A DNA stretch of 64,000 nucleotides, taken from assembly GCF_044324875.1 (NCBI RefSeq), contig NZ_CP172185.1, one strand, 5' to 3'. Numbering within the stretch: position 1 is the first letter of the stretch; each line of letters opens with the position of its first letter. The notes under the pieces were generated by a model. It made no database searches. It saw only the letters and a list, made by a program, of their open reading frames with translations, and had not been told where the DNA came from. Positions 1 to 63,236 of this stretch are shown in pieces. This DNA comes from Escherichia coli. Its GTDB lineage: Bacteria; Pseudomonadota; Gammaproteobacteria; Enterobacterales; Enterobacteriaceae. A program made the translations under genes and the position numbers.

Positions 1-180
1 TGCTTTGCTAATACGCCCACAAACTCTGTAAATTAATGTATGAATAATCCGGGCATCATTTCAACGTCGAGTGCGCGAAAGGCTGTTTTGACGCGGACGT
101 TTGGGCTATGCTATGCGGATCTGAAAAACCACCTCAACGCTACATTTGTAGCCGTATTGAAAACAGGACCACTGGCTGCC

Positions 181-2763
181 ATGCAAGAGCAATACCGCCC
201 GGAAGAGATAGAATCCAAAGTACAGCTTCATTGGGATGAGAAGCGCACATTTGAAGTAACCGAAGACGAGAGCAAAGAGAAGTATTACTGCCTGTCTATG
301 CTTCCCTATCCTTCTGGTCGACTACACATGGGCCACGTACGTAACTACACCATCGGTGACGTGATCGCCCGCTACCAGCGTATGCTGGGCAAAAACGTCC
401 TGCAGCCGATCGGCTGGGACGCGTTTGGTCTGCCTGCGGAAGGCGCGGCGGTGAAAAACAACACCGCACCGGCACCGTGGACGTACGACAACATCGCGTA
501 CATGAAAAACCAGCTCAAAATGCTGGGCTTTGGTTATGACTGGAGCCGCGAGCTGGCAACCTGTACGCCGGAATACTACCGTTGGGAACAGAAATTCTTC
601 ACCGAGCTGTATAAAAAAGGCCTGGTATATAAGAAGACTTCTGCGGTCAACTGGTGCCCGAACGACCAGACCGTACTGGCGAACGAACAAGTTATCGACG
701 GCTGCTGCTGGCGCTGCGATACCAAAGTTGAGCGTAAAGAGATCCCGCAGTGGTTTATCAAAATCACTGCTTACGCTGACGAGCTGCTCAACGATCTGGA
801 TAAACTGGATCACTGGCCAGACACCGTTAAAACCATGCAGCGTAACTGGATCGGTCGTTCCGAAGGCGTAGAAATCACTTTCAACGTTAACGACTATGAC
901 AACACGCTGACCGTTTACACTACCCGCCCGGACACCTTTATGGGTTGTACCTACCTGGCGGTAGCGGCAGGTCATCCGCTGGCGCAGAAAGCGGCGGAAA
1001 ATAATCCTGAACTGGCCGCCTTTATTGACGAATGCCGTAACACCAAAGTTGCCGAAGCTGAAATGGCGACGATGGAGAAAAAAGGCGTCGATACTGGCTT
1101 TAAAGCGGTTCACCCATTAACGGGCGAAGAAATTCCCGTTTGGGCAGCAAACTTCGTATTGATGGAGTACGGCACGGGCGCAGTTATGGCGGTTCCGGGT
1201 CACGACCAGCGCGACTACGAGTTTGCCTCTAAATACGGCCTGAACATCAAACCAGTTATTCTGGCGGCTGACGGTTCTGAACCCGATCTTTCTCAGCAAG
1301 CCCTGACCGAAAAAGGCGTGCTGTTCAACTCTGGCGAGTTCAACGGTCTTGACCATGAAGCGGCCTTCAACGCTATCGCCGATAAACTGACTGCGATGGG
1401 CGTTGGCGAGCGTAAAGTGAACTACCGCCTGCGCGACTGGGGTGTTTCCCGTCAGCGTTACTGGGGCGCGCCGATTCCGATGGTGACGCTGGAAGACGGT
1501 ACCGTAATGCCGACCCCGGACGACCAGCTGCCGGTGATCCTGCCGGAAGATGTGGTGATGGACGGCATTACCAGCCCGATTAAAGCAGATCCGGAGTGGG
1601 CAAAAACTACCGTTAACGGTATGCCAGCGCTGCGTGAAACCGACACTTTCGACACCTTTATGGAGTCCTCCTGGTACTATGCGCGCTACACTTGCCCGGA
1701 GTACAAAGAAGGTATGCTGGATTCCAAAGCGGCTAACTACTGGCTGCCGGTGGATATCTACATTGGTGGTATCGAACACGCCATTATGCACCTGCTCTAC
1801 TTCCGCTTCTTCCACAAACTGATGCGTGATGCAGGCATGGTGAACTCTGACGAACCAGCGAAACAGTTGCTGTGTCAGGGTATGGTGCTGGCAGATGCCT
1901 TCTACTATGTTGGCGAAAACGGCGAACGTAACTGGGTTTCCCCGGTTGATGCTATCGTTGAACGTGACGAGAAAGGCCGTATCGTGAAAGCGAAAGACGC
2001 GGCAGGTCATGAACTGGTTTATACCGGCATGAGCAAAATGTCCAAGTCGAAGAACAACGGTATCGACCCGCAGGTGATGGTTGAACGTTACGGCGCGGAC
2101 ACCGTTCGTCTGTTTATGATGTTTGCTTCTCCGGCGGATATGACTCTCGAATGGCAGGAATCCGGCGTGGAAGGGGCTAACCGCTTCCTGAAACGTGTCT
2201 GGAAACTGGTTTACGAGCACACAGCGAAAGGTGATGTTGCGGCACTGAACGTTGATGCGCTGACTGAAGATCAGAAAGCGCTGCGTCGCGATGTGCATAA
2301 AACGATCGCTAAAGTGACCGATGATATCGGCCGTCGTCAGACCTTCAACACCGCAATTGCGGCGATTATGGAGCTGATGAACAAACTGGCGAAAGCACCG
2401 ACCGATGGCGAGCAGGATCGCGCTCTGATGCAGGAAGCACTGCTGGCCGTTGTTCGTATGCTTAACCCGTTCACCCCGCACATCTGCTTCACGCTGTGGC
2501 AGGAACTGAAAGGCGAAGGCGATATCGACAACGCACCGTGGCCGGTTGCTGACGAAAAAGCGATGGTGGAAGACTCCACGCTGGTCGTGGTGCAGGTTAA
2601 CGGTAAAGTCCGTGCAAAAATCACCGTTCCGGTGGACGCAACGGAAGAACAGGTTCGCGAACGTGCTGGCCAGGAACATCTGGTAGCAAAATATCTTGAT
2701 GGCGTTACCGTGCGTAAAGTGATTTACGTACCCGGTAAACTCCTCAATCTGGTCGTTGGCTAA
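181..2763 (+). CDS. leuS: leucine--tRNA ligase
   Basis: ORF 40..2763 trimmed to internal ATG at 181 ([12 protein letters not shown]...), giving 860 aa; class I aaRS HMGH ([11 protein letters not shown]) and KMSKS motifs present. Confidence 0.95.
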
Positions 2764-2777
2764 GCGCGGGAGGAAGC

Positions 2778-3341
2778 GTGCGATATCTGGCAACATTGTT
2801 GTTATCTCTGGCGGTGTTAATCACCGCCGGGTGTGGCTGGCATCTGCGTGATACCACGCAGGTTCCTTCCACTATGAAGGTCATGATCCTGGACTCAGGC
2901 GATCCGAACGGGCCATTAAGCCGTGCGGTGCGTAACCAGTTACGTCTGAATGGTGTCGAGTTGCTTGATAAAGAAACCACGCGTAAGGACGTTCCATCCC
3001 TGCGTTTGGGTTCTGTATCAATCTCGCAGGATACCGCTTCAGTTTTCCGTAATGGTCAAACAGCGGAATATCAGATGGTGATGACTGTCAGTGCGAGCGT
3101 ATTGATTCCGGGTCAAGATATTTACCCAATTAGCGCCAAAGTCTTCCGTTCGTTCTTTGATAACCCACAAATGGCGTTAGCGAAAGATAACGAACAGGAG
3201 ATGATTGTAAAAGAGATGTACGACCGTGCTGCCGAACAGTTGATCCGTAAACTGCCAAGCATCCGTGCTGCTGAAATTCGTTCTAACGAAGATGATGTAG
3301 CAGCAACGCCTGCACGCGTCTCTACCACGCTGGGTAACTGA
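2778..3341 (+). CDS. lptE: LPS assembly outer-membrane lipoprotein LptE (RlpB)
   Basis: GTG start; lipoprotein signal peptide with lipobox LITAGC; immediately downstream of leuS as in E. coli. Confidence 0.9.
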
Positions 3342-4372
3342 TGATTCGGTTGTACCCGGAACAACTCCGCGCGCAGCTCAATGAAGGGCTGCGCGCGGCG
3401 TATCTTTTACTTGGTAACGATCCTCTGTTATTGCAGGAAAGCCAGGACGCTATTCGTCAGGTAGCTGCGGTACAAGGATTCGAAGAACACCACACTTTTT
3501 CCATTGATCCCAACACTGACTGGAATGCGATCTTTTCGTTATGCCAGGCCATGAGTCTGTTTGCCAGTCGACAAACGCTATTGCTGTTGTTACCAGAAAA
3601 CGGACCGAATGCGGCGATTAATGAACAACTTCTCACACTCACCGGACTTCTGCATGACGACCTGCTGTTGATCGTCCGCGGTAATAAATTAAGCAAAGCG
3701 CAAGAAAATGCCGCCTGGTTTACTGCTCTTGCGAATCGCAGCGTGCAGGTGACCTGTCAGACACCGGAGCAGGCTCAGCTTCCCCGCTGGGTTGCTGCGC
3801 GCGCAAAACAGCTCAACTTAGAACTGGATGACGCGGCGAATCAGGTGCTCTGCTACTGTTATGAAGGTAACCTGCTGGCGCTGGCTCAGGCACTGGAGCG
3901 TTTATCGCTACTCTGGCCAGACGGCAAACTGACATTACCTCGCGTTGAACAGGCGGTGAATGATGCCGCGCATTTCACCCCTTTTCATTGGGTTGATGCT
4001 TTGTTGATGGGAAAAAGTAAGCGCGCGTTGCATATTCTTCAGCAACTGCGTCTGGAAGGCAGCGAACCGGTTATTTTGTTGCGCACATTACAACGTGAAC
4101 TGTTGTTACTGGTTAACCTGAAACGCCAGTCTGCCCATACGCCACTGCGTGCGTTGTTTGATAAGCATCGGGTATGGCAGAACCGCCGGGGCATGATGGG
4201 CGAGGCGTTAAATCGCTTAAGCCAGCCGCAGTTACGTCAGGCCGTGCAACTCCTGACACGAACGGAACTCACCCTCAAACAAGATTACGGTCAGTCAGTG
4301 TGGGCAGAGCTGGAAGGGTTATCTCTTCTGTTGTGCCATAAACCCCTGGCGGACGTATTTATCGACGGTTGA
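3341..4372 (+). CDS. holA: DNA polymerase III delta subunit
   Basis: 343-aa ORF, start overlaps lptE stop (ATGA); N-terminus [13 protein letters not shown] matches remembered HolA. Confidence 0.9.
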
Positions 4373-14731: not shown

Positions 14732-15697
14732 ATGAGTAAACCCATTGTGATGGAACGCGGTGTTAAATACCGCGATGCCGATAAGATGGCCCTTATCCCG
14801 GTTAAAAACGTGGCAACAGAGCGCGAAGCCCTGCTGCGCAAGCCGGAATGGATGAAAATCAAGCTTCCAGCGGACTCTACACGTATCCAGGGCATCAAAG
14901 CCGCAATGCGCAAAAATGGCCTGCATTCTGTCTGCGAGGAAGCCTCCTGCCCTAACCTGGCGGAATGCTTCAACCACGGCACAGCAACGTTTATGATCCT
15001 CGGCGCTATTTGTACCCGCCGTTGTCCGTTCTGTGACGTTGCCCACGGTCGCCCGGTAGCTCCGGATGCCAATGAACCAGTGAAACTGGCGCAGACCATT
15101 GCCGATATGGCGCTGCGTTATGTGGTTATCACCTCCGTTGACCGTGATGACCTGCGCGATGGCGGTGCCCAGCACTTTGCGGATTGCATTACTGCCATTC
15201 GGGAAAAAAGCCCGCAAATCAAAATTGAAACTCTGGTGCCGGATTTCCGCGGTCGTATGGATCGTGCTCTGGATATTCTGACCGCCACACCACCAGATGT
15301 GTTCAACCATAACCTGGAAAACGTACCGCGTATTTACCGTCAGGTACGGCCTGGTGCAGATTACAACTGGTCGCTGAAGCTGCTGGAACGCTTTAAAGAA
15401 GCGCATCCGGAAATCCCGACCAAGTCTGGTCTGATGGTGGGTCTGGGTGAAACCAATGAAGAAATTATTGAGGTAATGCGCGACCTGCGCCGTCATGGTG
15501 TGACGATGTTAACGCTGGGGCAATATTTGCAGCCAAGCCGCCATCACCTGCCGGTTCAACGTTACGTTAGCCCGGATGAGTTCGACGAAATGAAAGCCGA
15601 AGCGCTGGCGATGGGCTTTACCCATGCTGCATGCGGTCCGTTTGTCCGCTCGTCTTACCACGCCGATTTGCAGGCGAAAGGGATGGAAGTTAAGTAA
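14732..15697 (+). CDS. lipA: lipoyl synthase (radical SAM)
   Basis: 321 aa; CX3CX2C radical-SAM cluster motif (CTRRCPFC) and second Cys cluster (CPNLAEC). Confidence 0.95.
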
Positions 15698-15726
15698 TCC
15701 TGTAATAATTACTTACATCTGTCTGA

Positions 15727-15757
15727 TAAAAAACCCGCTTTTTGAAGCGGGTTTTTT
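15727..15757. terminator. bidirectional rho-independent terminator between lipA and tatE
   Basis: AAAAAACCCGC-TTTTTGAA-GCGGGTTTTTT: hairpin flanked by A-run and T-run, usable on both strands. Confidence 0.8.
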
Positions 15758-15797
15758 GTATCGAACAAGATATTGAGGGAGCGTCCTGCTCGCCACG

Positions 15798-16001
15798 TCA
15801 CTCTTTATGAGAGAGCTTTTCAGCCTGAAGATCAACGTCTGCGCCTTTTTTCGCCGCAGCATCGTCATCATTCATCGCCTTCTTGAACCCTTTAATGGCC
15901 GCTCCAAGGTCTCCGCCCAGCGTACGTAACTTCTTAGTCCCAAACAGCAGAACGACCAGCGCCGCAACTACCAGCAGTTTGGTAATACTAATCTCACCCA
16001 T
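15798..16001 (-). CDS. tatE: twin-arginine translocase subunit TatE
   Basis: 67-aa ORF; TatA/E-type N-terminal TM helix followed by amphipathic region. Confidence 0.9.
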
Positions 16002-16129
16002 AGATACCTTCTTGACATATAACCGGCAACAGAACGCGCCTTAAAAACCAGAGAATATTAACGGTCATTCGACGCGCGCACACAATAGCAATCTGTAACA
16101 AGGTGAATCAAGCGCCGAGTAAAAAAACA

Positions 16130-16924
16130 TCATAATAATTGCGGCGGCGCAAAGCGACGGTTGTTTAAAACGGGAAGTTGCGCGCGCACCTGACGCACAC
16201 GTTCGGGCGTCACTTCCGCCATAATGAGTGCAGGCATTTCTGACGCTGCCGCAATGGTGACGCCAAAGGGATCTATAATCCGGCTTTGCCCGATATTTTT
16301 GTTCCCGCACTCCCCCGCCGCCACCATATAACAGGTGGTATCCAGCGCACGAGCGGCAAGCAACGTTGACCAGTGATGCTCCTTGAGCGGCCCACGAACC
16401 CAGGCGGCAGGAAGTACCAGGATTTCAGCTCCCTGTAATGCCTGTGCCAGCGCCAGCTCTGGAAAGCGTAAGTCATAACAGGTCATCAGACCGACCTTCA
16501 TCCCTTCCACCTCCAGTAACGGAGCTATTTCATTACCAGCATCAACATGGCGTGATTCCTGAATGGCAAATGCATCATAGAGATGCAGTTTGGCATAACG
16601 GGCGACGATGTTTCCTGCCTGTAGCGCCACCAGCATATTCCATGCGCGCCCCGGTGTTGAAGGAACATGAATCGTCAGAATTGTCGTCATCATGTTACGT
16701 TTACTTTCTCGACGTAAACGTCCGAGGAATTCGCCTTCCAGCAGCTGTGCTGATTTAACCGATAGATCTGCATCATGATCATCACGCGCCAACAATGCTT
16801 CCGGCAGGACAAACAGCGAAACGTCGTTTTCCGCCGCCTGCGCCATCAACGAGGCACAAATCTCAGCGTTCTTTTCCCACACAGATGTAACAGCAAACTG
16901 TCCTGCGGCAACCAGCATTGCCAC
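16130..16924 (-). CDS. ybeM: nitrilase-superfamily C-N hydrolase YbeM (Nit1-like amidase), intact
   Basis: 264-aa uninterrupted ORF with Glu/Lys/Cys catalytic-triad contexts ([23 protein letters not shown]). Confidence 0.8.
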
Positions 16925-17013
16925 CTCCTCCTGTCAGAGTCGTAAAATTCGCCAACGGCGATTATTCGGCGTTACACTTATCACTCATACAAATCAAATA
17001 GCAGGATTTTGCA

Positions 17014-17397
17014 GTGTTACAACTTCTTTTAGCAGTTTTTATTGGCGGTGGTACGGGAAGCGTGGCGAGATGGCTGTTAAGTATGCGATTTAACCCGCTG
17101 CATCAGGCGATTCCGTTGGGGACGCTGGCAGCAAACCTGATTGGGGCATTCATCATAGGAATGGGATTCGCCTGGTTTAGCAGGATGACGAACATTGATC
17201 CAGTGTGGAAAGTATTAATCACCACCGGATTTTGTGGCGGTCTAACAACCTTCTCAACATTTTCGGCAGAAGTGGTGTTTTTGTTACAAGAGGGCCGCTT
17301 TGGCTGGGCGTTACTGAACGTTTTCGTCAACCTTCTGGGGTCTTTTGCCATGACCGCACTGGCTTTCGGGCTGTTTTCCGCCTCAACCGCACACTAA
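17014..17397 (+). CDS. crcB: fluoride channel CrcB/FluC
   Basis: 127 aa, GTG start; four-TM small membrane protein matching remembered CrcB. Confidence 0.9.
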
Positions 17398-17402
17398 AGA
17401 CC

Positions 17403-17431
17403 AAAAAAAACCCGCTGATTAAGCGGGTTTT
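17403..17431. terminator. bidirectional rho-independent terminator between crcB and cspE
   Basis: AAAAAAAACCCGC-TGATTAA-GCGGGTTTT hairpin with flanking A/T runs. Confidence 0.8.
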
Positions 17432-17450
17432 GAATTCTTGCTGACGTATC

Positions 17451-17660
17451 TTACAGAGCGATTACGTTTGCAGCAGAAGGGCCTTTGGCACCGTTAGTGA
17501 TTTCGAACTCTACGCGCTGACCTTCAGCAAGAGTTTTAAAACCATTAGTCTGGATTGCAGAGAAGTGTACGAACACGTCTTTGCTGCCGTCTTCCGGAGT
17601 AATGAAACCGAATCCTTTGGACTCATTAAACCACTTAACGTTACCTTTAATCTTAGACAT
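17451..17660 (-). CDS. cspE: cold-shock protein CspE
   Basis: ORF 17451..17744 trimmed to [12 protein letters not shown] start (69 aa); RNP motifs KGFGFI and VFVHF. Confidence 0.93.
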
Positions 17661-17834
17661 CAAAATTACCTTTACATGAAAAATAGACACAAATGCTGTG
17701 TCGGTTACCAGTACACCAATTGTGGTACGCTTTGTCCAGTGCAACTTTACTAAAAAGTGATAAAAGTCGCGTTATTTTTGATGTTAATTATTTTACCCAT
17801 TGATTTTAAAGAGTTTACTAAAATTTCATTTGTC

Positions 17835-30753: not shown

Positions 30754-30900
30754 TCCTCTGATTTACAAAACACGCTAATTCGTCTTCCATAAACCATGAC
30801 GATTAAGATTTATACATAATGCACTGCATTGAGGAATTCCCTGAATGTGACGCAAATCACTTCAAAGAGTGAGCAACAGTCAGTATCATCATGTGAGTTA

Positions 30901-30935
30901 AACCCTCGCCGCCTGACGGTGAGGGTTTTCTTTTG
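30901..30935 (+). terminator. terminator hairpin downstream of rna
   Basis: AACCCTC-N13-GAGGGTT followed by TTCTTTTGGG. Confidence 0.6.
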
Positions 30936-30982
30936 GGTATGTTTATCTGCGACACTCGCAGTACCGACGACATGGAGTAAAA

Positions 30983-31449: not shown

Positions 31450-31535
31450 TCCGCTCAAATATCAACCAGATTTATCATTTTGCTCTTAAGCGCAGCATTC
31501 TAATCTGAACTGGTTATTCATCTGCGGAACCTCAT

Positions 31536-31625
31536 ATGAGCGAAGCTCTCGGTATCACTGCATTTTATATATTCATAGCCGCAATTATTGTTGCTGCAGT
31601 GCTATACCTTGAACAACGCTGGTAG
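31536..31625 (+). CDS. candidate 29-codon micro-ORF encoding a single-TM peptide (hypothetical)
   Basis: ATG...TAG, MSEALGITAFYIFIAAIIVAAVLYLEQRW; GGAA about 8 nt upstream; hydrophobic core of about 19 residues; below the 60-aa cutoff of the supplied ORF track. Confidence 0.2.
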   Translation: MSEALGITAFYIFIAAIIVAAVLYLEQRW

Positions 31626-31748
31626 CGCCTGGTTTTATTTATTTTCCAGCTCAATAGCAAATTCAGATCAAATCAGCCTCGCAAATCATAGATTCATAAC
31701 CAATAATGTGCTGTTATGTATACATGCAAAAACAAGGAGAGAATGCTT

Positions 31749-33969: not shown

Positions 33970-34033
33970 AAGAATTAGGTGAATTTCCGAAGTATTTCGC
34001 GCCGGAGTTGGTAGCGCGAAAGACGAAGGAAAT

Positions 34034-34597
34034 TTAGATTTTACCAACCAGGTCCAGAGACGGAGCCAGAGTTACTTCACCTTCTTTCCATTTAGCCGGG
34101 CAAACTTCACCTGGGTGAGAAGCTACGTACTGTGCTGCTTTGATTTTACGCAGCAGGTCAGACGCGTCACGGCCAATGCCTTCAGCGGTAACTTCGATTG
34201 CCTGGATGATACCCTGCGGGTCAACAACGAAGGTCGCACGGTCAGCCAGACCTTCATCTTCACGCATGTTGTCGAAGTTACGGGTCAGGGCGCCAGTCGG
34301 GTCGCCGATCATCGCATATTTGATTTTAGCGATGGTTTCAGAGCTGCTGTGCCATGCTTTGTGGGTGAAGTGAGTATCGGTAGATACTGCGTATACGTCT
34401 ACGCCCAGTTTCTGCAGTTCTTCGTAGTGGTCAGCAACGTCACCCAGTTCGGTCGGGCATACGAAAGTAAAGTCAGCCGGGTAGAAGAAGAAGACGCTCC
34501 AGCGGCCTTCGGTATCTTTTTCGGTGATTTCGATGAATTCGCCGTTTTTGAATGCCTGGTTTTTAAAAGGTTTAATTTTGGTGTTAATCAAGGACAT
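34034..34597 (-). CDS. ahpC: alkyl hydroperoxide reductase subunit C (peroxiredoxin)
   Basis: 187 aa; peroxidatic Cys motif FTFVCPTE and resolving Cys near the C-terminus. Confidence 0.95.
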
Positions 34598-34968
34598 CTA
34601 TACTTCCTCCGTGTTTTCGATGAGATGTAAGGTAACCAATTTTTGCCGATTCGGCTAATGCGTTTCCATTATCAAATCGATAAGTTTTACCTTACAACCT
34701 TCGTAAGACAACTTTGTGAACTTTGCACCGCCAGCGGCGATAAAAAGTAAAATGGCCCCCTTTCCAGGTGACCGTGTAATCTGAACTACCCTTTGGTATC
34801 TTCAGCGCCTGCCTGCAGGCTGAGGTGTTGCCCTTACAAATGCAACAACGACATGGATTACAACACCCTCATAAACAAAGGGCAATCACCTGATCTAAGC
34901 TCTTACCTATGACAGTGATAGGTTATGCCTTTTACCCGACTTTTGCACTGACTGAAAAGGACAAATTA

Positions 34969-35715
34969 ATGTTAAAAAAGATACTTTTACTGGCTCTGCT
35001 TCCTGCAATCGCCTTCGCAGAGGAACTTCCTGATCCAGTAAAAGCGATTGAAAAACAGGGTATTACGATCATCAAAACGTTCGATGCCCCCGGAGGAATG
35101 AAAGGTTATCTCGGAAAGTATCAGGATATGGGCGTCACCATCTACCTGACTCCAGATGGTAAGCACGCTATCTCTGGTTACATGTACAACGAGAAAGGTG
35201 AAAACCTGAGTAACACACTTATCGAAAAAGAAATTTACGCACCAGCCGGACGCGAAATGTGGCAACGGATGGAACAATCCCACTGGCTCCTCGACGGTAA
35301 AAAAGACGCGCCGGTCATTGTTTACGTCTTCGCCGATCCGTTCTGCCCGTATTGTAAACAGTTCTGGCAGCAGGCGCGCCCGTGGGTAGATTCTGGCAAA
35401 GTGCAATTAAGAACATTGTTGGTTGGGGTTATCAAGCCAGAAAGCCCGGCGACAGCAGCGGCAATTCTTGCCTCCAAAGATCCCGCAAAAACCTGGCAAG
35501 AATATGAAGCCTCTGGTGGCAAGCTTAAGCTAAACGTGCCTGCAAACGTAAGTACAGAGCAAATGAAAGTGTTAAGCGACAACGAGAAACTGATGGACGA
35601 TCTGGGGGCAAATGTCACACCAGCTATCTATTACATGAGTAAGGAAAATACTCTGCAACAGGCCGTGGGGTTGCCCGATCAGAAAACGCTTAATATCATT
35701 ATGGGGAATAAATAA
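34969..35715 (+). CDS. dsbG: periplasmic thiol:disulfide interchange protein DsbG
   Basis: ORF trimmed to [11 protein letters not shown] start (248 aa); signal peptide; thioredoxin-fold CPYC motif; divergent from ahpC. Confidence 0.9.
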
Positions 35716-35922
35716 AATATAATTCATGGATGGTTGAAATATATCCCTGCTTTTCAACCATCCTAAAAAAGCATGAATTGCTCGCTCTACCCTAAGTGGC
35801 TGTGCTATTTTAGAAAAACTTAATCCTGAGTTAAGCAAAAAAACATAATACAAATAAATACAACAGCAACATTATTGATCAAGTGAATGATTTATAGAAG
35901 AGATAATATAACGGAGTATGTT

Positions 35923-36825
35923 ATGGCGAATCTTTATGACCTAAAAAAATTTGATCTGAATTTACTGGTCATATTTGAGTGTATTTATCAACATCTCAGC
36001 ATTAGTAAAGCGGCAGAATCATTATATATAACGCCCTCTGCTGTTAGTCAGTCGTTACAACGTTTACGTGCGCAATTTAATGACCCGTTATTCATTCGCT
36101 CAGGGAAAGGTATCGCGCCGACTACGACAGGGTTAAATCTGCATCATCATCTTGAGAAAAATCTCAGAGGCATTGAACAAACGATCAATATTGTTAATAA
36201 GTCTGAGCTAAAGAAAAATTTTATTATCTACGGTCCTCAGCTTATTTCTTGTACTAATAACAACATGCTAATCCGCTGTCTTAGACAAGATACTTCAATC
36301 GATATAGAATGCCATGACATACTGCTTTCAGCTGAAAATGCCGAAGAACTGTTGGTTCAACGCAAAACTGACCTGGCAATTACACTACAACCAGTAATTA
36401 GCCGCTCTGTCATCTGCATGCCGTTACATACTATTCGCAATTCTCTTATATGTAGCAACAAACATCCTCGTATTACCGATACCAGTAACTATGAACAAAT
36501 TATCGCCGAAGAATTCACCTTGTTAATATCTAAATCAGCAGGGATTGACGAAATTCAAATGGACATAGATGAACGTTTTATGAACCGTAAAGTTTCATTT
36601 CGCAGTTCTTCTTTGTTGACGATAATTAATAGTATTTCTGTTACTGACTTATTGGGCATTGTGCCCACCGAACTGTACGATTTACATCGTGATTTTTTGA
36701 AGTTACAAGAGATAAAACTGGAACGACCACTTCCTGCGGTTAAACTTTATATTTCCTATAACAAGGCTTCGTTGAACAACCTTGTCTTCTCACGATTCAT
36801 AGATCGTTTAAATGATAGCTTCTGA
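35923..36825 (+). CDS. ybdO: LysR-family transcriptional regulator YbdO
   Basis: ORF trimmed to MANLYDLKKFDLNLL start (300 aa); N-terminal HTH; conspicuously AT-rich coding sequence. Confidence 0.8.
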   Translation: MANLYDLKKFDLNLLVIFECIYQHLSISKAAESLYITPSAVSQSLQRLRAQFNDPLFIRSGKGIAPTTTGLNLHHHLEKNLRGIEQTINIVNKSELKKNFIIYGPQLISCTNNNMLIRCLRQDTSIDIECHDILLSAENAEELLVQRKTDLAITLQPVISRSVICMPLHTIRNSLICSNKHPRITDTSNYEQIIAEEFTLLISKSAGIDEIQMDIDERFMNRKVSFRSSSLLTIINSISVTDLLGIVPTELYDLHRDFLKLQEIKLERPLPAVKLYISYNKASLNNLVFSRFIDRLNDSF

Positions 36826-36971
36826 TTTATTACCACGGATAAATGTTATATTACGCATCAATTGATTCATTGTGTGAATATAAAATAATGTGCTCTATCT
36901 TGCTTCGTTTACCCTATAATTAGCGGATTCATCTCACGAGTCACCCCGTAACGTTCAGAGAGCGTTTTCAG

Positions 36972-38192
36972 ATGTCTATTTATAAAATCCCGCTTCCACT
37001 GAATATTCTGGAAGCTGCAAAAGAACGTATTACCTGGACACTTAACACCCTACCCCGCGTCTGCGTTTCTTTTTCGGGTGGTAAAGATTCCGGATTAATG
37101 CTGCATCTGACCGCCGAACTTGCCCGACAAATGGGCAAAAAAATTTGTGTTTTATTTATCGACTGGGAAGCTCAGTTCTCTTGCACCATTAACTATGTTC
37201 AGTCCCTGCGCGAGTTGTACACCGATGTCATCGAAGAGTTTTACTGGGTTGCGCTCCCGCTTACAACGCAAAATTCCCTATCACAATACCAACCCGAATG
37301 GCAGTGCTGGGAACCTGATGTCGAATGGGTACGTCAGCCCCCGCAAGATGCGATAACCGATCCTGACTTTTTCTCCTTTTACCAGCCTGGCATGACCTTC
37401 GAACAATTTGTGCGTGAGTTTGCCGAATGGTTTTCGCAAAAACGTCCGGCGGCGATGATGATCGGCATCCGTGCGGATGAGTCCTACAACCGTTTTGTCG
37501 CCATCGCCAGTTTAAATAAACAACGTTTTGCCGATGATAAGCCCTGGACCACTGCCGCACCAGGCGGTCATAGCTGGTACATTTACCCCATCTACGACTG
37601 GAAAGTCGCTGATATCTGGACCTGGTATGCTAGCCATCAACGCCTCTGTAACCCACTGTATAATATAATGTATCAGGCAGGCGTTCCTCTACGTCATATG
37701 CGAATTTGCGAACCTTTTGGTCCGGAACAACGGCAAGGATTATGGCTCTATCACGTTATCGAACCGGATCGCTGGGCTGCTATGTGCGCACGAGTCAGCG
37801 GGGTAAAAAGTGGCGGCATTTACGCCGGACATGACAACCATTTTTATGGTCATCGGAAAATCCTCAAGCCCGAACATTTAGACTGGCAGGAGTATGCATT
37901 ATTGCTACTCAACAGCATGCCGGAGAAAACAGCTGAGCATTATCGCAATAAAATCGCCATTTATTTGCACTGGTATCAGAAAAAAGGCATCGAGGTTCCA
38001 CAAACCCAGCAAGGGGACATTGGCGCGAAAGATATCCCCTCCTGGCGGCGAATATGCAAAGTTTTACTCAATAACGATTACTGGTGTCGGGCATTATCAT
38101 TTAGCCCGACCAAAGCGAAGAACTATCAGCGTTATAACGAACGAATAAAAGGAAAACGTCAGGAATGGGGGATACTATGCAACAACGATTAA
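36972..38192 (+). CDS. ybdN: PAPS-reductase-like / PP-loop ATP pyrophosphatase family protein YbdN (IbrA-like)
   Basis: 406 aa; PP-loop SGGKDS at residues 35-40 (nt 37074..37091); 3' end overlaps ybdM by 28 nt. Confidence 0.8.
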   Translation: MSIYKIPLPLNILEAAKERITWTLNTLPRVCVSFSGGKDSGLMLHLTAELARQMGKKICVLFIDWEAQFSCTINYVQSLRELYTDVIEEFYWVALPLTTQNSLSQYQPEWQCWEPDVEWVRQPPQDAITDPDFFSFYQPGMTFEQFVREFAEWFSQKRPAAMMIGIRADESYNRFVAIASLNKQRFADDKPWTTAAPGGHSWYIYPIYDWKVADIWTWYASHQRLCNPLYNIMYQAGVPLRHMRICEPFGPEQRQGLWLYHVIEPDRWAAMCARVSGVKSGGIYAGHDNHFYGHRKILKPEHLDWQEYALLLLNSMPEKTAEHYRNKIAIYLHWYQKKGIEVPQTQQGDIGAKDIPSWRRICKVLLNNDYWCRALSFSPTKAKNYQRYNERIKGKRQEWGILCNND

Positions 38193-38794
38193 CGCAGGAT
38201 TTAACCCAATTTCTCGCCAGCTTGCCGGAAGACGATCGCATCAAAGCGATTAATGAAATCCGCATGGCGATCCATCAGGTTAGCCCCTTTCGAGAAGAGC
38301 CAGTGGATTGCGTTCTGTGGGTTAAAAACAGCCAACTTATGCCTAATGATTACAACCCAAACAACGTGGCACCACCCGAAAAAAAACTGCTGAAAAAATC
38401 CATTGAAATAGATGGTTTTACCCAACCCATTGTGGTCACGCATACGGATAAAAATGCCCTGGAAATCGTGGATGGTTTTCACCGCCATGAAATTGGTAAA
38501 GGCTCATCATCGTTAAAATTACGCTTAAAAGGTTATTTGCCGGTGACCTGTCTGGAAGGTACGCGTAATCAACGCATCGCCGCGACTATTCGTCATAACC
38601 GCGCTCGTGGTCGCCACCAAATCACTGCCATGTCCGAAATTGTTCGTGAACTCAGCCAGTTGGGATGGGACGATCATAAAATCGGCAAAGAGCTGGGAAT
38701 GGACAGCGACGAAGTGCTGCGCCTGAAACAAATTAATGGCCTGCAAGAGTTGTTTGCCGACCGTCAATATTCCCGTGCCTGGACTGTCAAATAA
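38165..38794 (+). CDS. ybdM: ParB/Srx-like domain protein YbdM (IbrB-like)
   Basis: 209 aa; DGFHR motif (nt 38471..38485) resembling the DGQHR/ParB box. Confidence 0.8.
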   Translation: MGDTMQQRLTQDLTQFLASLPEDDRIKAINEIRMAIHQVSPFREEPVDCVLWVKNSQLMPNDYNPNNVAPPEKKLLKKSIEIDGFTQPIVVTHTDKNALEIVDGFHRHEIGKGSSSLKLRLKGYLPVTCLEGTRNQRIAATIRHNRARGRHQITAMSEIVRELSQLGWDDHKIGKELGMDSDEVLRLKQINGLQELFADRQYSRAWTVK

Positions 38795-39955
38795 CTACAG
38801 CTGGCGCAGGCGTTCAGCTGCAGCCAGCAACGTCGATTCCTTCTTGGCAAAACAGAGACGAATCAGTTTATGGGGGAAGGGATCGGCGCAAAACACCGAC
38901 AGCGGAATCGCCGCTACACCGTGCTCCCGCGTCAGCCACTGGCAAAACTCAACGTCATCCAGCGAAGAAACCGCGCTGTAATCCACCAGCAAAAAGTAAG
39001 TGCCTTCGCACGGTAAAATCTCCAGCCGACTCTCACTTAAGGCATTCACCAGAATATCGCGTTTCTGGCGATAAAAGTCCGGTAACGCAAGATAATGCTC
39101 AGGTTCTGCACGTAGCATATCCGCAAGTGCCAGCTGTGCCGGGGTATTCACCGAAAAGGTCAGATACTGGTGTACCTTGCGAATTTCAGCGCTGATGGGC
39201 GCTGGCGCAACGCAATAACCCACTTTCCAGCCGGTCATATGATAGGTCTTGCCAAATGAAGAAACTGCCACCGCCCGCTCACGCAGCTGCGGATGCGCCA
39301 GCACGCTGGCATGGCCCTGTTGTGAAAAGTTGATGTGCTCGTAAACTTCATCGCTAATGACAAAAATCTCGTGCCCGCCGATCGCCTGCCACAAAGCGGC
39401 GAAATCAGCCTGCTGCCAGACAGTTGCACTGGGGTTATGCGGGGTGTTGAGGATCACCAGTCGGGTGCGCTCGCTTAACAATGCGGCAAATTCCTGCCAG
39501 TCCACGCGAAAATGCGGTGGTTGCAGTGCAATACGTTTCACTATTCCCCCCGAAAGCGCGATGGCGGGCGCGTAACTGTCATAGCTGGGATCAAAGCAGA
39601 TCACTTCATCACCATTGCGCACCAATGCGGTAATCGCTGCATATAACGCTTCCGTCGCCCCTGCCGTTACGGTGATATCGCTATCGGCATCCGGTTGATA
39701 GCCATACAGACGTTCCGTTTTCTGAGCAATCGCCTCGCGCAAGGCCTGCACGCCAGTCATAGGCGCGTATTGGTTTGCCCCCTGGGCAACGTGGTACGCC
39801 AGCCGCTCCTGCAAATAGCGCGGACCATCAAAATCAGGAAAGCCTTGTGACAGGTTAATCGCCTGGTGTTGCTGCGCCAGCGCGCTCATCTGGGTGAAAA
39901 TAGTGGTGCCAAGTTGTGGAAGTTTGCTTTGTGGAATCAGAGGGTTATTTGTCAT
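38795..39955 (-). CDS. ybdL: methionine aminotransferase (PLP-dependent, class I)
   Basis: 386 aa; PLP-lysine context SSFGKTYHMTGWKVGY; stop codon abuts ybdM stop (convergent, zero spacer). Confidence 0.88.
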   Translation of the reverse strand: MTNNPLIPQSKLPQLGTTIFTQMSALAQQHQAINLSQGFPDFDGPRYLQERLAYHVAQGANQYAPMTGVQALREAIAQKTERLYGYQPDADSDITVTAGATEALYAAITALVRNGDEVICFDPSYDSYAPAIALSGGIVKRIALQPPHFRVDWQEFAALLSERTRLVILNTPHNPSATVWQQADFAALWQAIGGHEIFVISDEVYEHINFSQQGHASVLAHPQLRERAVAVSSFGKTYHMTGWKVGYCVAPAPISAEIRKVHQYLTFSVNTPAQLALADMLRAEPEHYLALPDFYRQKRDILVNALSESRLEILPCEGTYFLLVDYSAVSSLDDVEFCQWLTREHGVAAIPLSVFCADPFPHKLIRLCFAKKESTLLAAAERLRQL

Positions 39956-40062
39956 TTTTTATTGTGCCTGACGAAGTTGTGTTGAAGGCACTATAACACG
40001 ATGCTAGCATTTGGCAATCAAGACGTTTAGATGTCTAAATAAAACAATAAGGACAACACAAC

Positions 40063-41151
40063 ATGCCTCACAATCCTATCCGCGTGGTCGTCGGCCCGGC
40101 TAACTACTTTTCACATCCAGGAAGTTTCAATCACCTGCACGATTTTTTCACTGATGAACAGCTTTCTCACGCGGTGTGGATCTACGGCGAACGCGCCATT
40201 GCTGCGGCGCAAACCAAACTTCCGCCAGCGTTTGAACGGCCAGGGGCAAAGCATATTTTGTTTCGCGGTCATTGCAGCGAAAGCGATGTACAACAACTGG
40301 CGGCTGACTCCGGTGACGACCGCAGCGTGGTGATTGGCGTCGGCGGCGGCGCACTGCTCGACACCGCGAAAGCCCTCGCCCGCCGTCTCGGTCTGCCGTT
40401 TGTTGCCGTTCCGACGATCGCCGCTACCTGCGCAGCCTGGACACCGCTCTCCGTCTGGTATAACGATGCCGGACAGGCGCTGCATTATGAGATTTTCGAC
40501 GACGCCAATTTTATGGTGCTGGTGGAACCGGAGATTATCCTCAACGCGCCGCAAGAATATCTGCTGGCGGGGATCGGTGACACGCTGGCGAAATGGTATG
40601 AAGCGGTGGTGCTGGCCCCGCAACCAGAAACGTTGCCGTTAACCGTGCGGCTGGGGATCAATAATGCGCAGGCCATTCGCGACGTATTGTTAAACAATAG
40701 CGAACAGGCGCTTGCCGATCAGCAAAATCAACAGTTAACGCAATCATTTTGCGATGTGGTGGATGCGATTATCGCCGGAGGTGGAATGGTCGGTGGTCTG
40801 GGCGATCGTTTTACGCGTGTGGCGGCGGCCCATGCCGTGCATAACGGTCTGACCGTGCTGCCGCAAACCGAGAAGTTTCTCCACGGCACCAAAGTCGCCT
40901 ACGGAATTCTGGTGCAAAGCGCCTTGCTGGGTCAGGATGATGTGCTGGCACAATTAACCGGGGCGTATCAGCGTTTTCATCTGCCGACTACGCTGGCGGA
41001 GCTGGAAGTGGATATCAATAATCAGGCGGAGATCGACAAAGTGATTGCCCACACCTTACGTCCGGTGGAATCCATTCATTACCTGCCGGTCACGCTGACA
41101 CCAGATACGTTGCGTGCAGCGTTCGAAAAAGTGGAATCGTTTAAAGCCTGA
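40063..41151 (+). CDS. ybdH: iron-containing alcohol/hydroxycarboxylate dehydrogenase family protein YbdH
   Basis: 362 aa; nucleotide-binding GGGALLDTAKA motif. Confidence 0.85.
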   Translation: MPHNPIRVVVGPANYFSHPGSFNHLHDFFTDEQLSHAVWIYGERAIAAAQTKLPPAFERPGAKHILFRGHCSESDVQQLAADSGDDRSVVIGVGGGALLDTAKALARRLGLPFVAVPTIAATCAAWTPLSVWYNDAGQALHYEIFDDANFMVLVEPEIILNAPQEYLLAGIGDTLAKWYEAVVLAPQPETLPLTVRLGINNAQAIRDVLLNNSEQALADQQNQQLTQSFCDVVDAIIAGGGMVGGLGDRFTRVAAAHAVHNGLTVLPQTEKFLHGTKVAYGILVQSALLGQDDVLAQLTGAYQRFHLPTTLAELEVDINNQAEIDKVIAHTLRPVESIHYLPVTLTPDTLRAAFEKVESFKA

Positions 41152-41160
41152 CGTACATAT

Positions 41161-41358
41161 TTAGCAGCAGCGCGCGCCGCCTTTTCCACCGTAGCGCGCG
41201 TCCTGCCGCTCACGGAAAAACTCCTCGTAGGTCATCGGCGTTTGATCGGGATGGTTAACCCGCATATGTTCGACATAGTTGTCGTAATCAGGCATACCAA
41301 TCATCAGCTTCGCCGCCTGACCTAAATATTTTCCGGCTTTTGCCAGTGAATCAAACAT
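41161..41358 (-). CDS. ybdD: DUF466 small protein YbdD (partner of CstA)
   Basis: 65-aa ORF matching remembered YbdD, downstream of cstA on the same strand. Confidence 0.8.
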
Positions 41359-41390
41359 TAATACCTCCGGTAATCAGGTTGCCAGGAGAG

Positions 41391-41428
41391 TGCCGGATGC
41401 GGCGTGAACGCCTTATCCGGCCTACAAA
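41391..41428. repeat. REP (repetitive extragenic palindromic) element
   Basis: TGCCGGATGCGGCGTGAACGCCTTATCCGGCCTAC, canonical E. coli REP; the same sequence recurs at 63137. Confidence 0.75.
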
Positions 41429-41450
41429 TGCTATCAACGCGCTCGGTCAG

Positions 41451-41496
41451 TCCCCTCGCCCCATCGGGGAGAGGGTTAGGGTGAGAGGGAACCCTC
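41451..41496. repeat. G/C-rich palindromic intergenic repeat adjacent to REP
   Basis: CCCCTCGCCCC-ATC-GGGGAGAGGG followed by GAGGG-AA-CCCTC; imperfect palindromes typical of BIME-associated units. Confidence 0.4.
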
Positions 41497-41539
41497 GGCA
41501 CTATGCCAACATTCGCCAACATCCCCCCTCACTCTGACT

Positions 41540-43645
41540 TTAGTGTGCGCCTTTTGCCTGCGCCACGATCTCCTCGACATTTTCCGGCATCGGCTCATAC
41601 GGCGTTTCTTTCGCCGTTGGCTTCGGCTCTTTCAATGCCGCCAGTGCCGTCTTAATCGAGAACAGCGCCAGAACCACCACGACCACCATAAAGAAGATGG
41701 TTAACCCAGCATCCAGACGGTTGTTGAATACCAGTTGCGCCAGTTGTGACTCAGTATACTGCGACGGAATATTGCCGCTGTCGATCATTGCCTGGAACTT
41801 GTTAGCAATCGCCAGGAAGCCGACTTTCGCATCCGGGCTAAACGCTTTCTGCCAGCCAGCGGTCAGTGTACAAATCAGCAGCCAGGCCGTTGGTACCAGC
41901 GCCACCCAGGCGTAACGTTGACGTTTCATTTTGAACAGCACCACGGCACAAAGCATCAGCGCCATTCCTGCCAGCATCTGGTTGGCAATACCAAACAGCG
42001 GCCACAGAGTGTTAATACCGCCCAGCGGATCGACCACACCCTGATGGAGGAAGTAGCCCCACGCCAGTACGCACAGCGCCGTTGCCAGCAGGTTAGCAGG
42101 CAGTGAATCGGTCCGTTTCAGGCCCGGAGACACCACGCCCAGCAGATCCTGCAACATAAAACGCGCAGCTCGCGTACCTGCATCCACCGCCGTCAGAATA
42201 AACAGTGCTTCAAACAGAATGGCGAAGTGATACCAGAACGCCACATCCATCATGCCGCCCAGCGCGCCGTGCAGAATGTAGGCCATCCCCACCGCCAGCG
42301 TCGGCGCACCGCCCGCACGGGAAATGATCGACTGTTCACCCACTTCGCTGGCAATCTGGTTGAGCGTATCTGGTGTAATGCTAAAGCCCCAGCTACTCAC
42401 CACCTGCGCGGCAGAAGCGACCACATCCGCCGTCCCTGCCGGAGCCAGCACCGCCATCGGGCTGTTCATAGCGAAGTACACACCTGGATCGATGATACAG
42501 GCGGAAACCAGCGCCATAATCGCCACGAAGGATTCCATTAACATCCCGCCGTAGCCGATAAAACACGCCTGCCCTTCGTTCGCCAGCATCTTCGGCGTGG
42601 TACCGGAAGAGATCAGCGCATGGAAGCCAGACACCGCGCCACAAGCGATGGTGATAAACAGGAACGGGAACAGGTTACCGGTCCATACCGGGCCAGTGCC
42701 ATCAACAAACTTAGTCAGCGCAGGCATGGTCAGCGTCGGGCGCATAATCAAAATGCCTACTGCCAGGCCGACGATAGTCCCGATTTTCAGGAAGGTAGAG
42801 AGGTAGTCACGCGGGGCCAGCAGCAACCACACCGGCAGCACCGCCGCCACGAAGCCGTAACCCACCAGCATCCAGGTCAGCTGCACACCCGTAAAATCAA
42901 AGTACGGTGCCCAGGTCGGGCTTTCTGCCACCCAGCCGCCAGAGATAATGGCGAAAATCAGGAATACCAGGCCAATCACCGATACTTCGCCAATACGCCC
43001 CGGACGCAGATAACGCAGGTAGATCCCCATAAACAGCGCCAGCGGAATGGTGAACGCAACGGTATACGTTCCCCACGGACTATGGGTCAGGGCTTTCACC
43101 ACGATCATCGCCAGCACGGCAAGGATAATGACCATGATCATAAAGCAGGCCACCAGCGCAATCACCCCGGCGGTTGGCCCCATCTCTTCTTTGACCAACT
43201 CACCCAGCGAGCGACCGTCACGACGCGTAGAAACAAACAGCACCATGAAATCCTGCACTGCACCGGCGAGAACCACCCCGGCGAGTAGCCAGATCATCCC
43301 TGGCAGGTAGCCCATTTGCGCTGCCAGCACCGGCCCAACCAACGGACCTGCTCCGGCAATGGCCGCAAAATGGTGACCGAACAGCACTTTCTTGTCCGTC
43401 GGCACATAGTCCAGGCCGTCGTTATGGCGCACCGCTGGCGTCATACGCGTCGGGTCAACTGCCAGCACATTTTTGGCGATATACAGGCCATAAAAACGGT
43501 AAGCGATCAGATAGATACAGACCGACGCCACCACAATCCACAGTGCGTTGATCTGTTCCCCACGATTTAAAGCAATGTATCCCAGAGCAAATGCTCCCAT
43601 TACAGAGAGCACTGTCCAGACGAGGTATTTCCCTGATTTGTTCAT
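41540..43645 (-). CDS. cstA: carbon starvation protein A (peptide/pyruvate transporter family)
   Basis: 701 aa polytopic membrane protein matching remembered CstA. Confidence 0.92.
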   Translation of the reverse strand: MNKSGKYLVWTVLSVMGAFALGYIALNRGEQINALWIVVASVCIYLIAYRFYGLYIAKNVLAVDPTRMTPAVRHNDGLDYVPTDKKVLFGHHFAAIAGAGPLVGPVLAAQMGYLPGMIWLLAGVVLAGAVQDFMVLFVSTRRDGRSLGELVKEEMGPTAGVIALVACFMIMVIILAVLAMIVVKALTHSPWGTYTVAFTIPLALFMGIYLRYLRPGRIGEVSVIGLVFLIFAIISGGWVAESPTWAPYFDFTGVQLTWMLVGYGFVAAVLPVWLLLAPRDYLSTFLKIGTIVGLAVGILIMRPTLTMPALTKFVDGTGPVWTGNLFPFLFITIACGAVSGFHALISSGTTPKMLANEGQACFIGYGGMLMESFVAIMALVSACIIDPGVYFAMNSPMAVLAPAGTADVVASAAQVVSSWGFSITPDTLNQIASEVGEQSIISRAGGAPTLAVGMAYILHGALGGMMDVAFWYHFAILFEALFILTAVDAGTRAARFMLQDLLGVVSPGLKRTDSLPANLLATALCVLAWGYFLHQGVVDPLGGINTLWPLFGIANQMLAGMALMLCAVVLFKMKRQRYAWVALVPTAWLLICTLTAGWQKAFSPDAKVGFLAIANKFQAMIDSGNIPSQYTESQLAQLVFNNRLDAGLTIFFMVVVVVLALFSIKTALAALKEPKPTAKETPYEPMPENVEEIVAQAKGAH

Positions 43646-43825
43646 AGTTGTTATCCGTGTGCGTGTCCATAGAGATGTTACATTTTGTTTCTATAACATC
43701 TTTGTACAATTTAACAACACAGCAACCATGTAAATCGGAGTTGAAACCAATATTTAACTTAACAATGTTAACTCGATCACTCCGTTAACCGAGTTTTCCT
43801 GCAATCTCATTTAATTCTGTCGGGC

Positions 43826-44987
<1,162 letters not shown>

Positions 44988-44988
<1 letters not shown>

Positions 44989-45845
44989 TATTTCACCTCG
45001 CGGGAGAGTAGCTTCCACCAGGCATCGATGGTCGGGTTTTTCGCCAGCATGACAAAGTCGATATCGCCATGCACTTTGCGCCAGCGCGCCGCCAGCGCCA
45101 TCATCCGCACCGAATCCAGACCGTAGTCGATCAGGTTGTCGTCATCGAACGGTTCATCGGACTCGTCCAGCAACGGCAGGATCACCTCACGCAGCGCCGC
45201 TTTGCTGGCGGGGATAGGTGCTGGCAGCAATTCTTCGGTCATCACCACCCGGCCAGAACGTCCGGCCACATATTTCAGCGACATCAAATGCTCGTCACGG
45301 CTGAAATCGGCCAGCGCATCTGCCACCATAAACGGTTTAATATCGCGCATAAATGCGTCCGTTGCGGTGGTCATACAGCCAATGTGGGCATATACCCCGG
45401 TAATAATCAGCTGGTTACGTCCACTCTCTTTGAGCATTTGCTCCAGCGGAGAACGATGAAACGCGCTGTAGCGCCACTTCACCAGCACCGTGTCGTCGGC
45501 ATCTGGCGTCAGGCGATCCACCACCTTTTGCTGTTCCGGCGAACGGGTCAGGCCTGGCCCCCACATATCATTCAACAGCGCCCGATCTTCATCGCTCTGC
45601 TCTTTCGGCTGGGCGGTGTAATAAACCGGGATATTGTGCTGTTTGCAGTAGTCGCGTAGTGCCGCAATATTCGCGATCACCTGCTCCATCATCGGGCAGT
45701 TCTCGCCCCAGAAGCTGACAAAATAGTCCTGCATATCATGGATTAACAACGCGGCACGTTGCGGTTCAAAGGCCCAGTCTACTTTATTCTGCGGAATATC
45801 GTGAGACTCCGGCAGTGCGTAAGCCTCTAATTTTGGAATAGCCAT
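44988..45845 (-). CDS. entB: isochorismatase / aryl carrier protein EntB
   Basis: 285 aa; isochorismatase domain plus C-terminal ArCP with phosphopantetheine site (DYGLDSVRMM). Confidence 0.93.
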
Positions 45846-45858
45846 CGTGTTCTCTCCT

Positions 45859-47469
45859 TCAGGCTGATGCGCGTGACGCCAGCCACTGACGTAATTGTTT
45901 TTTATCGACTTTCCCGACCGCCGTCAGCGGAAGTGAATCTACACACTCCACGCGATCCGGTAATTTAAACTCGGCAATACCCTGTTCACGCAGGAAACGA
46001 CGCACCTGCACCGCGCGCAGCGGCTCTTTTACCACCAGATAAGCACAGCTTTTTTCGCCCATCAGCTCATCTTCCATGCTCACCAGTGCGGCGTAGATCA
46101 CCGCCGGGTGGCGCAGCAGCAGGTTTTCGATCTCTTCGGCAGCGATCTTCTCGCCGCCACGGTTAATCTGATCTTTCTCGCGCCCCTGCACGGTGATGTA
46201 ACCCTCTGGATCAATAGAGATCAGATCGCCGGAACAGTAAAAACCGTTGGCATCAAAGGCGCTGGCATTGTGCTGCGGGCTTTTGTAATAGCCGCGGAAG
46301 GTGTACGGACCGCGCGTCATCAGGCGTCCGACTTCCCCTTGCGGCAGTGGATTTCCTTCGGCATCGGCAACCCACACTTCATCGTCCGGGCACATTGGGT
46401 AACCCTGGGTATGGATAATTTTCTCCGCGCTATCATCAAGACGGGTGTAGTTCACCAGCCCTTCCGCCATGCCAAACACCTGCTGCAACTGGCAGCCAAT
46501 CTCAGCGGGAATACGCGCAGCAAGCGTGGCAGAAAGACGTGCACCACCGACCTGTAACAGTTTCAGCGAGGCAAGCTGCGCCCGGCTTTCGCCTTCAGCC
46601 AGCGCCTGTAACCACAGGCTGACTGCGGGCGGCACCAGCGCGGTGACGTTCACCTGATGTTTTTCAATCAATGGGAAGCAAAGCGTGGCGCTGGGGTCGG
46701 CCGCCAGAACCACAGTGCCGCCAGCGAGAAATACCCCCAACGATCCCGGTGAACTCATGGCGTAGTTATGAGCCGCCGGGATCGCGCACAGGTAGCGTGT
46801 CTGTTGTGTGAACTGACAAATCTCGACGCTACGACGCACGCTGTAGTAATAGTCATTATGAGTACGTGGGATCAGTTTCGGTGTGCCGGTGGTGCCGCCG
46901 GAAAGCTGGAAATAGGCCACTTCATCAGCAGGTGACGGCGTGGCAGTAAAATCCTCAGCCGGATGGTTAATCGCATCCTGCAAATTATGCTCACCGCTGT
47001 CGTTGTGCAGTTGCACCACGCGAATGGAGGAATGCTCTGCAACAAATGTATTGAGGAAATCATCTCCGCTAAACAGCGCATGCTGGCGATCGGCAATCAG
47101 TAACGCCGGTTCAATCTGGCTGGCATAGGCGTTCAGTTCACTACGCTGATGGCTGAACAGCGCCAGCACCGGCGCAACGCCCAGTTTCAGCAACGCGAAA
47201 AAGGTAATGTAAAGTTCAGCGACGTTACCCAGTTGTACCAGCGCGGTTTCACCAGGTTTAATGCCCTGACGGCGCAAACTACACGCGAGGTTATCCGCCG
47301 CCTGATTCAGCTCCCGGTAACTCAACTGCCGCTCGCCGTCGATGACCGCGATGCTGTCGCTTGCGGCATGACGGGTCAGAATGTCGGTCAGCGGCAAATC
47401 CTGCCAGTAGCCTTTTTCCCGATAGCGACGGGCAAACTCTTCCGGCCAGCGGGTGAATGGAATGCTCAT
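45859..47469 (-). CDS. entE: 2,3-dihydroxybenzoate-AMP ligase
   Basis: ORF trimmed to [12 protein letters not shown] start (536 aa); adenylation motifs ([13 protein letters not shown]). Confidence 0.93.
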
Positions 47470-47478
47470 CCTCACTCC

Positions 47479-48654
<1,176 letters not shown>

Positions 48655-48667
48655 ATCATCCTCCACA

Positions 48668-48705
48668 AAATGATAAAGGCTTTAATAATGATTATCATTT
48701 ATATT
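48668..48705. promoter_or_regulatory. Fur box in the divergent entC/fepB control region
   Basis: AATAATGATTATCATT closely matches the Fur consensus GATAATGATAATCATTATC. Confidence 0.75.
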
Positions 48706-48842
48706 TTCGGTCGCTAACCTAAAAGCAAACGCGCACTATGTCAACTCTTGAGGTAACGCAATCTGCAACTCGGGGTTGCATCTGCTTGTGGTTACAATGA
48801 AAATGAGAAGCATTAACTTCATTAATAACAGGAAGCTGATTT

Positions 48843-63136: not shown

Positions 63137-63236
63137 TGCCGGATGCGGCGTGAACGCCTTATCCGGCCTACAAAAATCTTGCCAATTCAATATATTGCAG
63201 GACCACGTAGGCCTGATAAGCGTAGCGCATCAGGCA
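63137..63236. repeat. BIME: two REP elements in opposite orientation downstream of fepA
   Basis: TGCCGGATGCGGCGTGAACGCCTTATCCGGCCTAC at 63137 and GTAGGCCTGATAAGCGTAGCGCATCAGGC at 63207. Confidence 0.75.

Follow-up and report, generated by a model that had tools for sequence, protein, structure and literature searches.

The minus-strand reading frame at 16130..16918 of the window (the whole stretch of 64,000 nucleotides of Escherichia coli DNA analysed here) is very probably an intact chromosomal ybeM encoding a deaminated glutathione (dGSH) amidase of the Nit1 type, and it appears to be the ancestral majority allele of a gene whose K-12 copy has lost its function. Comparing its sequence with curated family models, solved structures, enterobacterial orthologs and complete E. 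coli genomes, we place the probability of this reading at about 0.93. The gene, its name and its pseudogene status in K-12 are already known and are part of standard annotation.

Reading frame, start codon and gene neighbourhood

The ORF listing of the 64-kb window contains an uninterrupted frame of 264 aa, counted from a GTG, at 16130..16924 on the minus strand. A preliminary description of this DNA had called the frame an intact ybeM of 264 aa, leaving its strand unstated. The frame is indeed unbroken, and a chance ORF is excluded by its matches to Pfam CN_hydrolase and to the NCBIfam model NF033621 (see below); the figure of 264 aa is correct for the GTG ORF but probably not for the product. 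The features that bear on the start codon, together with the neighbouring genes, are as follows.

16130..16918, minus strand: ybeM coding sequence from ATG, 262 codons plus a TGA stop; deaminated glutathione amidase, nitrilase superfamily
16919..16924, minus strand: two extra in-frame codons, GTG GCA, with the GTG next to the Shine-Dalgarno run; annotated homologs begin at the ATG
16924..16932, minus strand: Shine-Dalgarno-like AGGAGGAGG, 5 nt upstream of the ybeM ATG
14732..15697, plus strand: lipA, a neighbour of ybeM
15798..16001, minus strand: tatE, a neighbour of ybeM
17014..17397, plus strand: crcB, a neighbour of ybeM

The bases upstream of ybeM in the window read ...GACAGGAGGAGGTGGCAATG, so that the GTG abuts the Shine-Dalgarno run without any spacer, whereas 5 nt separate that run from the ATG two codons further on. 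Both the ATG start and the resulting CDS length of 789 nt are those of the RefSeq CDSs in O169:H41 and BL21(DE3). On account of this spacing and of the RefSeq annotation of orthologs we dropped the GTG start in favour of the ATG: the product of the window gene is most likely 262 aa rather than 264 aa long, and the GTG GCA codons probably belong to the untranslated 5' UTR. The Shine-Dalgarno sequence itself is variable: the window and O169:H41 share AGGAGGAGG, and MG1655 has AGGAGG (a 3-nt indel). Genomes with the intact allele give match lengths of either 1048 or 1051 nt around ybeM, and the 3-nt difference suggests a common length polymorphism that is independent of the frameshift described below.

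The position of ybeM between crcB and tatE, and the order crcB-ybeM-tatE-lipA, agree with annotated E. coli genomes, in which the gene at the crcB-tatE position is named deaminated glutathione amidase; cspE and pagP also lie nearby, and the arrangement is standard for the species. The same gene, at the same locus and with the same length of 262 aa, is represented by the NF033621 proteins WP_001305561.1 (O169:H41) and WP_000959109.1 (BL21(DE3)). The nearest CDS copy in a complete genome lies two synonymous bases from that of the window (99.7% identity), with nothing material differing, and the exact 262-aa protein occurs in at least 1000 public contigs as 'deaminated glutathione amidase [Escherichia coli]'.

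An out-of-frame ORF of 47 aa lies within ybeM at 16525-16668 on the minus strand, and its N-terminus is near-identical to MFLQRRGAH, a 9-aa peptide from a 29-bp fragment of UTI89 ybeM that causes filamentation on over-expression (PMC6206680). Over-expressed out-of-frame fragments of UTI89 ybeM filament cells in that work, whereas the full-length ORF does not (PMC6206680); the filamentation is probably an over-expression artefact and not the mark of a real gene.

The K-12 frameshift and its distribution in E. coli

The annotation of MG1655 (NC_000913.3) lists ybeM (b4581; 658031..658818, 788 nt) as a pseudogene, as the preliminary description had stated, and the pairwise alignment proposed there locates the lesion. 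The sole CDS indel between MG1655 and the window is a G missing from MG1655 at CDS nt 200, within a single arginine codon.

16718..16720, minus strand: codon 67 (CGT, Arg), whose middle base, 16719, is the G absent from MG1655

With a G present at 16719 and the frame open, the window does not carry the K-12-type pseudogene allele. The MG1655 frame ends at a double stop after ~75 codons, leaving a stub that retains the catalytic Glu40 and lacks Lys110 and Cys147; the frameshift also excludes an identical intact ORF in MG1655, the finding that would have told against the preliminary description. Locus and flanking genes are otherwise the same in MG1655, which differs in the absence of G200 and in a Shine-Dalgarno run 3 nt shorter. 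At the DNA level the two copies are 98% identical, with 16 substitutions, and the codon changes divide into 12 synonymous and 3 nonsynonymous (V33A, V37A, H124R). This synonymous excess, combined with the otherwise undamaged state of the MG1655 sequence beyond the lesion when read in the shifted frame, fits purifying selection on ybeM followed by its recent inactivation in K-12. The MG1655 copy is regarded as a pseudogene in practice as well, serving as a neutral chromosomal insertion site (PMC4788846).

Full-length orthologs of 262 aa, which bear the name deaminated glutathione amidase, are kept across genera, with identities of 83% in E. fergusonii, 80-84% in Citrobacter, 73-76% in Leclercia and Kosakonia and 71-74% in Salmonella. 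Judged by these orthologs and by the counts given next, the intact allele is the ancestral and majority state, which bears out the earlier suggestion that the window holds the ancestral allele. The ortholog search also returned large clusters of E. coli fragments of 205-215 aa (P0058, P0060, P0073), probably gene-caller output from broken ybeM alleles.

The allele lacking G200 is present in 860 of 5,424 complete E. coli genomes (~16%), counted as exact matches to a 61-nt probe of MG1655 sequence across the deletion. The remaining genomes align with a 1-nt gap, so that ~84% are intact at this site, among them BL21(DE3), O157:H7 strains, Nissle 1917, UMNK88, APEC O78 and 83972. K-12 is a pseudogene lineage, as had been supposed, though not the only one, and the deletion is not sufficient alone to separate K-12 from other E. 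coli. A laboratory origin for the lesion was ruled out by wild isolates that carry the identical deletion and are annotated as 'frameshifted'; examples are 300709, from human stool in Mozambique, and JP538, from a pig in Japan.

We ranked an evenly spaced sample of 60 rows by similarity to the 1008-nt MG1655 locus. Only the best 9 of the 60 had the K-12 length, all of them at least 99.8% identical to MG1655, and the rows that followed were 99.7% identical and 1 nt longer. The deleted G does not lie within a homopolymer, and this, together with the shared K-12-like haplotype, suggests that the deletion arose once, on such a haplotype. By sampling estimate, ~360 genomes match MG1655 perfectly across the locus (the rows sampled being laboratory or engineered strains) and ~450 lie 2 SNPs from it (the rows sampled being natural isolates). 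We consider it likely that the K-12 frameshift is a natural, circulating loss-of-function allele on one K-12-like haplotype, about half of whose carriers are non-laboratory strains from humans, pigs, dogs and the environment.

Two further alleles were noted in the course of this comparison. BL21(DE3) has an intact ybeM of 789 nt (WP_000959109.1; 3393-4181 of the extracted locus), so that only one of the two main laboratory lineages would have this putative repair enzyme. In E. coli 08-3914 one A has been lost from the A-run at CDS nt 46-49 (393-1180 of the extracted locus), and the gene is annotated as frameshifted; the haplotype is unlike that of K-12, and the lesion could be an independent second loss, or else a sequencing error in the homopolymer.

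Family membership, proposed reaction and alternative readings

Pfam PF00795 (CN_hydrolase) matches the frame at E=4.3e-41 with 141.4 bits, against a gathering score of 23.2, and the match spans residues 5-247 of the 264-aa ORF and positions 2-255 of the 256-position profile. NCBIfam NF033621 (de_GSH_amidase, E. coli type), a model of type 'exception' rather than equivalog, gives 451.5 bits (cutoff 355) over positions 2-260 of 260. Window YbeM falls far below the cutoffs of the Yersinia-type dGSH amidase model NF043013 (82.7 bits, cutoff 500), the YafV/Nit2 omega-amidase model NF007757 (61.5 bits, cutoff 249) and the archaeal model for nitrilase proper, NF040852 (61.5 bits, cutoff 500). The term 'nitrilase-family' used in the preliminary description consequently applies at the level of the superfamily (PF00795) and not to nitrilase in the strict sense, the protein being in all likelihood a Nit1-type dGSH amidase.

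Among solved structures, the top relatives found by phmmer are both of the Nit1 branch, worm NitFhit (1EMS, E=1.7e-29) and yeast Nit2 (4H5U); mouse Nit2 (2W1V, E=4e-22) and yeast Nit3 (1F89, E=6e-20) are matched too. Alignment to the Nit1-branch structures assigns the putative catalytic residues to the following codons.

16799..16801, minus strand: catalytic Glu40 (LPE context), aligned with E54 of NitFhit 1EMS
16589..16591, minus strand: catalytic Lys110 (YAKLHL context), aligned with K127 of NitFhit 1EMS
16478..16480, minus strand: nucleophile Cys147, aligned with the CYD cysteine of NitFhit and yeast Nit2

The TCYD motif of YbeM begins at residue 146. We take the catalytic triad of NitFhit to be E54, K127 and C169, and the CYD-motif cysteine of 1EMS to be C169. 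The Glu, Lys and Cys contexts pointed out in the preliminary description thus align with the NitFhit residues, and E40, K110 and C147 are invariant in 9 of 9 enterobacterial orthologs (an alignment covering E. fergusonii, Citrobacter, Leclercia, Salmonella, Enterobacter and Kosakonia). With the eukaryotic Nit1 branch (mammalian Nit1, yeast Nit2, worm and fly NitFhit) YbeM has the fold family and the aligned triad in common; the Nit1-branch structures 1EMS and 4H5U are nevertheless distant (phmmer E=1e-29 to 1e-27), and YbeM, unlike its eukaryotic counterparts, is a stand-alone domain of 262 aa with neither a Fhit fusion nor a targeting peptide.

Deaminated glutathione is 2-oxoglutaryl-Cys-Gly, a by-product of transaminases acting on glutathione. 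We infer the substrate and chemistry of YbeM from the naming of its family and from a 2017 study by Peracchi et al., in which E. coli YbeM itself was reportedly assayed. By homology, Cys147 would attack the amide carbonyl of dGSH to give a thioester with the 2-oxoglutaryl moiety, with Glu40 acting as general base and Lys110 stabilising the intermediate or oxyanion, and hydrolysis would release 2-oxoglutarate and Cys-Gly in what would amount to a metabolite-repair or salvage reaction. Hydrolysis of deaminated glutathione is the reaction reported for Nit1 (PMC7041631). The K-12 deletion, by truncating the protein ahead of Lys110 and Cys147, would be expected to abolish function. YbeM is dispensable, as the K-12 frameshift in ~16% of complete genomes shows, and the harmless or phenotypically mild loss of Nit1 in other organisms (PMC7041631) fits with natural loss of ybeM in E. 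coli.

One alternative is that YbeM is an amidase with another substrate, for example an omega-amidase of the Nit2/YafV kind acting on 2-oxoglutaramate or a small amide, onto which the dGSH name has been over-transferred. Besides YbeM, E. coli has one nitrilase-superfamily amidase, YafV, whose chemistry is similar; it is encoded at a separate locus and has 2-oxoglutaramate as its assigned substrate. The Nit1 and Nit2 branches resemble one another, mouse Nit2 and yeast Nit3 are also matched by YbeM, and the 'exception' type of NF033621 leaves some room for such a substrate; we nonetheless regard this reading as improbable, as window YbeM lies far under the NF007757 cutoff while exceeding that of NF033621, its nearest structures are those of the Nit1 branch, and the literature treats YbeM (deaminated glutathione amidase) as the equivalent of NIT1 and YafV as that of NIT2 (PMC8788347). 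That YbeM is a true nitrilase acting on nitriles is the least credible of the readings weighed here: membership of the superfamily and the E-K-C triad would be expected of such an enzyme, but the NF040852 score is a small fraction of its cutoff and the nearest relatives are Nit-branch amidases rather than branch-1 nitrilases. Both the omega-amidase and the true nitrilase identities were dropped on the scores of the curated models.

A different kind of alternative accepts the identity of the gene and holds that the intact copy is silent or decaying, an unexpressed relic which in the lineage of the window has yet to acquire a lesion. Its appeal lies in the repeated loss of ybeM, with the K-12-type frameshift in 860 genomes and a separate one in 08-3914, and in the upstream region: a simple promoter and terminator scan of 15700..17450 found no sigma-70-like promoter in the crcB-ybeM intergenic region, with counts no higher than in shuffles. 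Against a relic stand the 262-aa orthologs with an invariant triad at 71-84% identity across genera, the 12:3 synonymous excess relative to MG1655 and the strong Shine-Dalgarno sequence ahead of the gene. In CFT073, moreover, ybeM is differentially expressed under NO stress, its level being lowered under NO in a CFT073 mutant, and it is close to an NsrR ChIP peak that has been linked to ybeM in both K-12 and CFT073 (PMC5320621). We therefore think a relic very unlikely, more so than a different amide substrate, and infer that the window allele of this Nit1-type dGSH amidase gene is expressed.

On the preferred reading of ybeM as an intact dGSH amidase gene, K-12 strains and a sizeable natural clade would lack a metabolite-repair amidase whose gene is present in BL21(DE3) and most wild E. 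coli, a difference that could matter for glutathione-related metabolomics across laboratory strains. If the K-12 frameshift is indeed a natural allele, a successful E. coli clade would manage without dGSH repair, and metabolomics based on K-12 would be conducted without the dGSH repair step that BL21 has. The 1-nt lesion may in addition provide a handy lineage marker.

Relation of the window to MG1655 outside ybeM

The window is collinear with MG1655 674,963->609,352 in reverse orientation; its first 31 kb are 98.1% identical to MG1655, and the sequence beyond them 95-97%. At only 95-98% identity throughout the collinear stretch, it belongs to a lineage other than K-12, one of the two possibilities that the preliminary description had thought probable. 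Among complete genomes the best match over 24 kb reaches 99.6%, and no complete RefSeq E. coli genome is identical to the window.

Several local differences from MG1655 accompany this divergence. At 31454-31731 the window has ~276 nt in place of MG1655 641,885-643,495 (~1.6 kb, with ybdR and yldA flanked by uspG and rnk), and it appears to lack ybdR. Identity over 34014-48815 (ahpC-dsbG-citR-ybdN/M/L-cstA-ent) is 95.3%, compared with 98.1% in the first 31 kb, a drop that may reflect mosaic ancestry or recombination. Absent from the window are ~184 nt of the MG1655 fepB-entC intergenic region, at ~48813-48815, and ~80 nt between ahpC and ahpF, at ~34007-34014; these MG1655-only segments might be repetitive extragenic elements. 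No Rfam family overlaps ybeM or its upstream region, the nearest match being the cspA-type element at cspE. Rfam families scoring above their gathering scores in the window comprise the cspA-type thermoregulator element at cspE (17403-17761, minus strand), the rnk leader (30829-30937, plus strand) and the sRNAs STnc70 (34742-34835, minus strand) and ES036/CssrF (63173-63214, plus strand).
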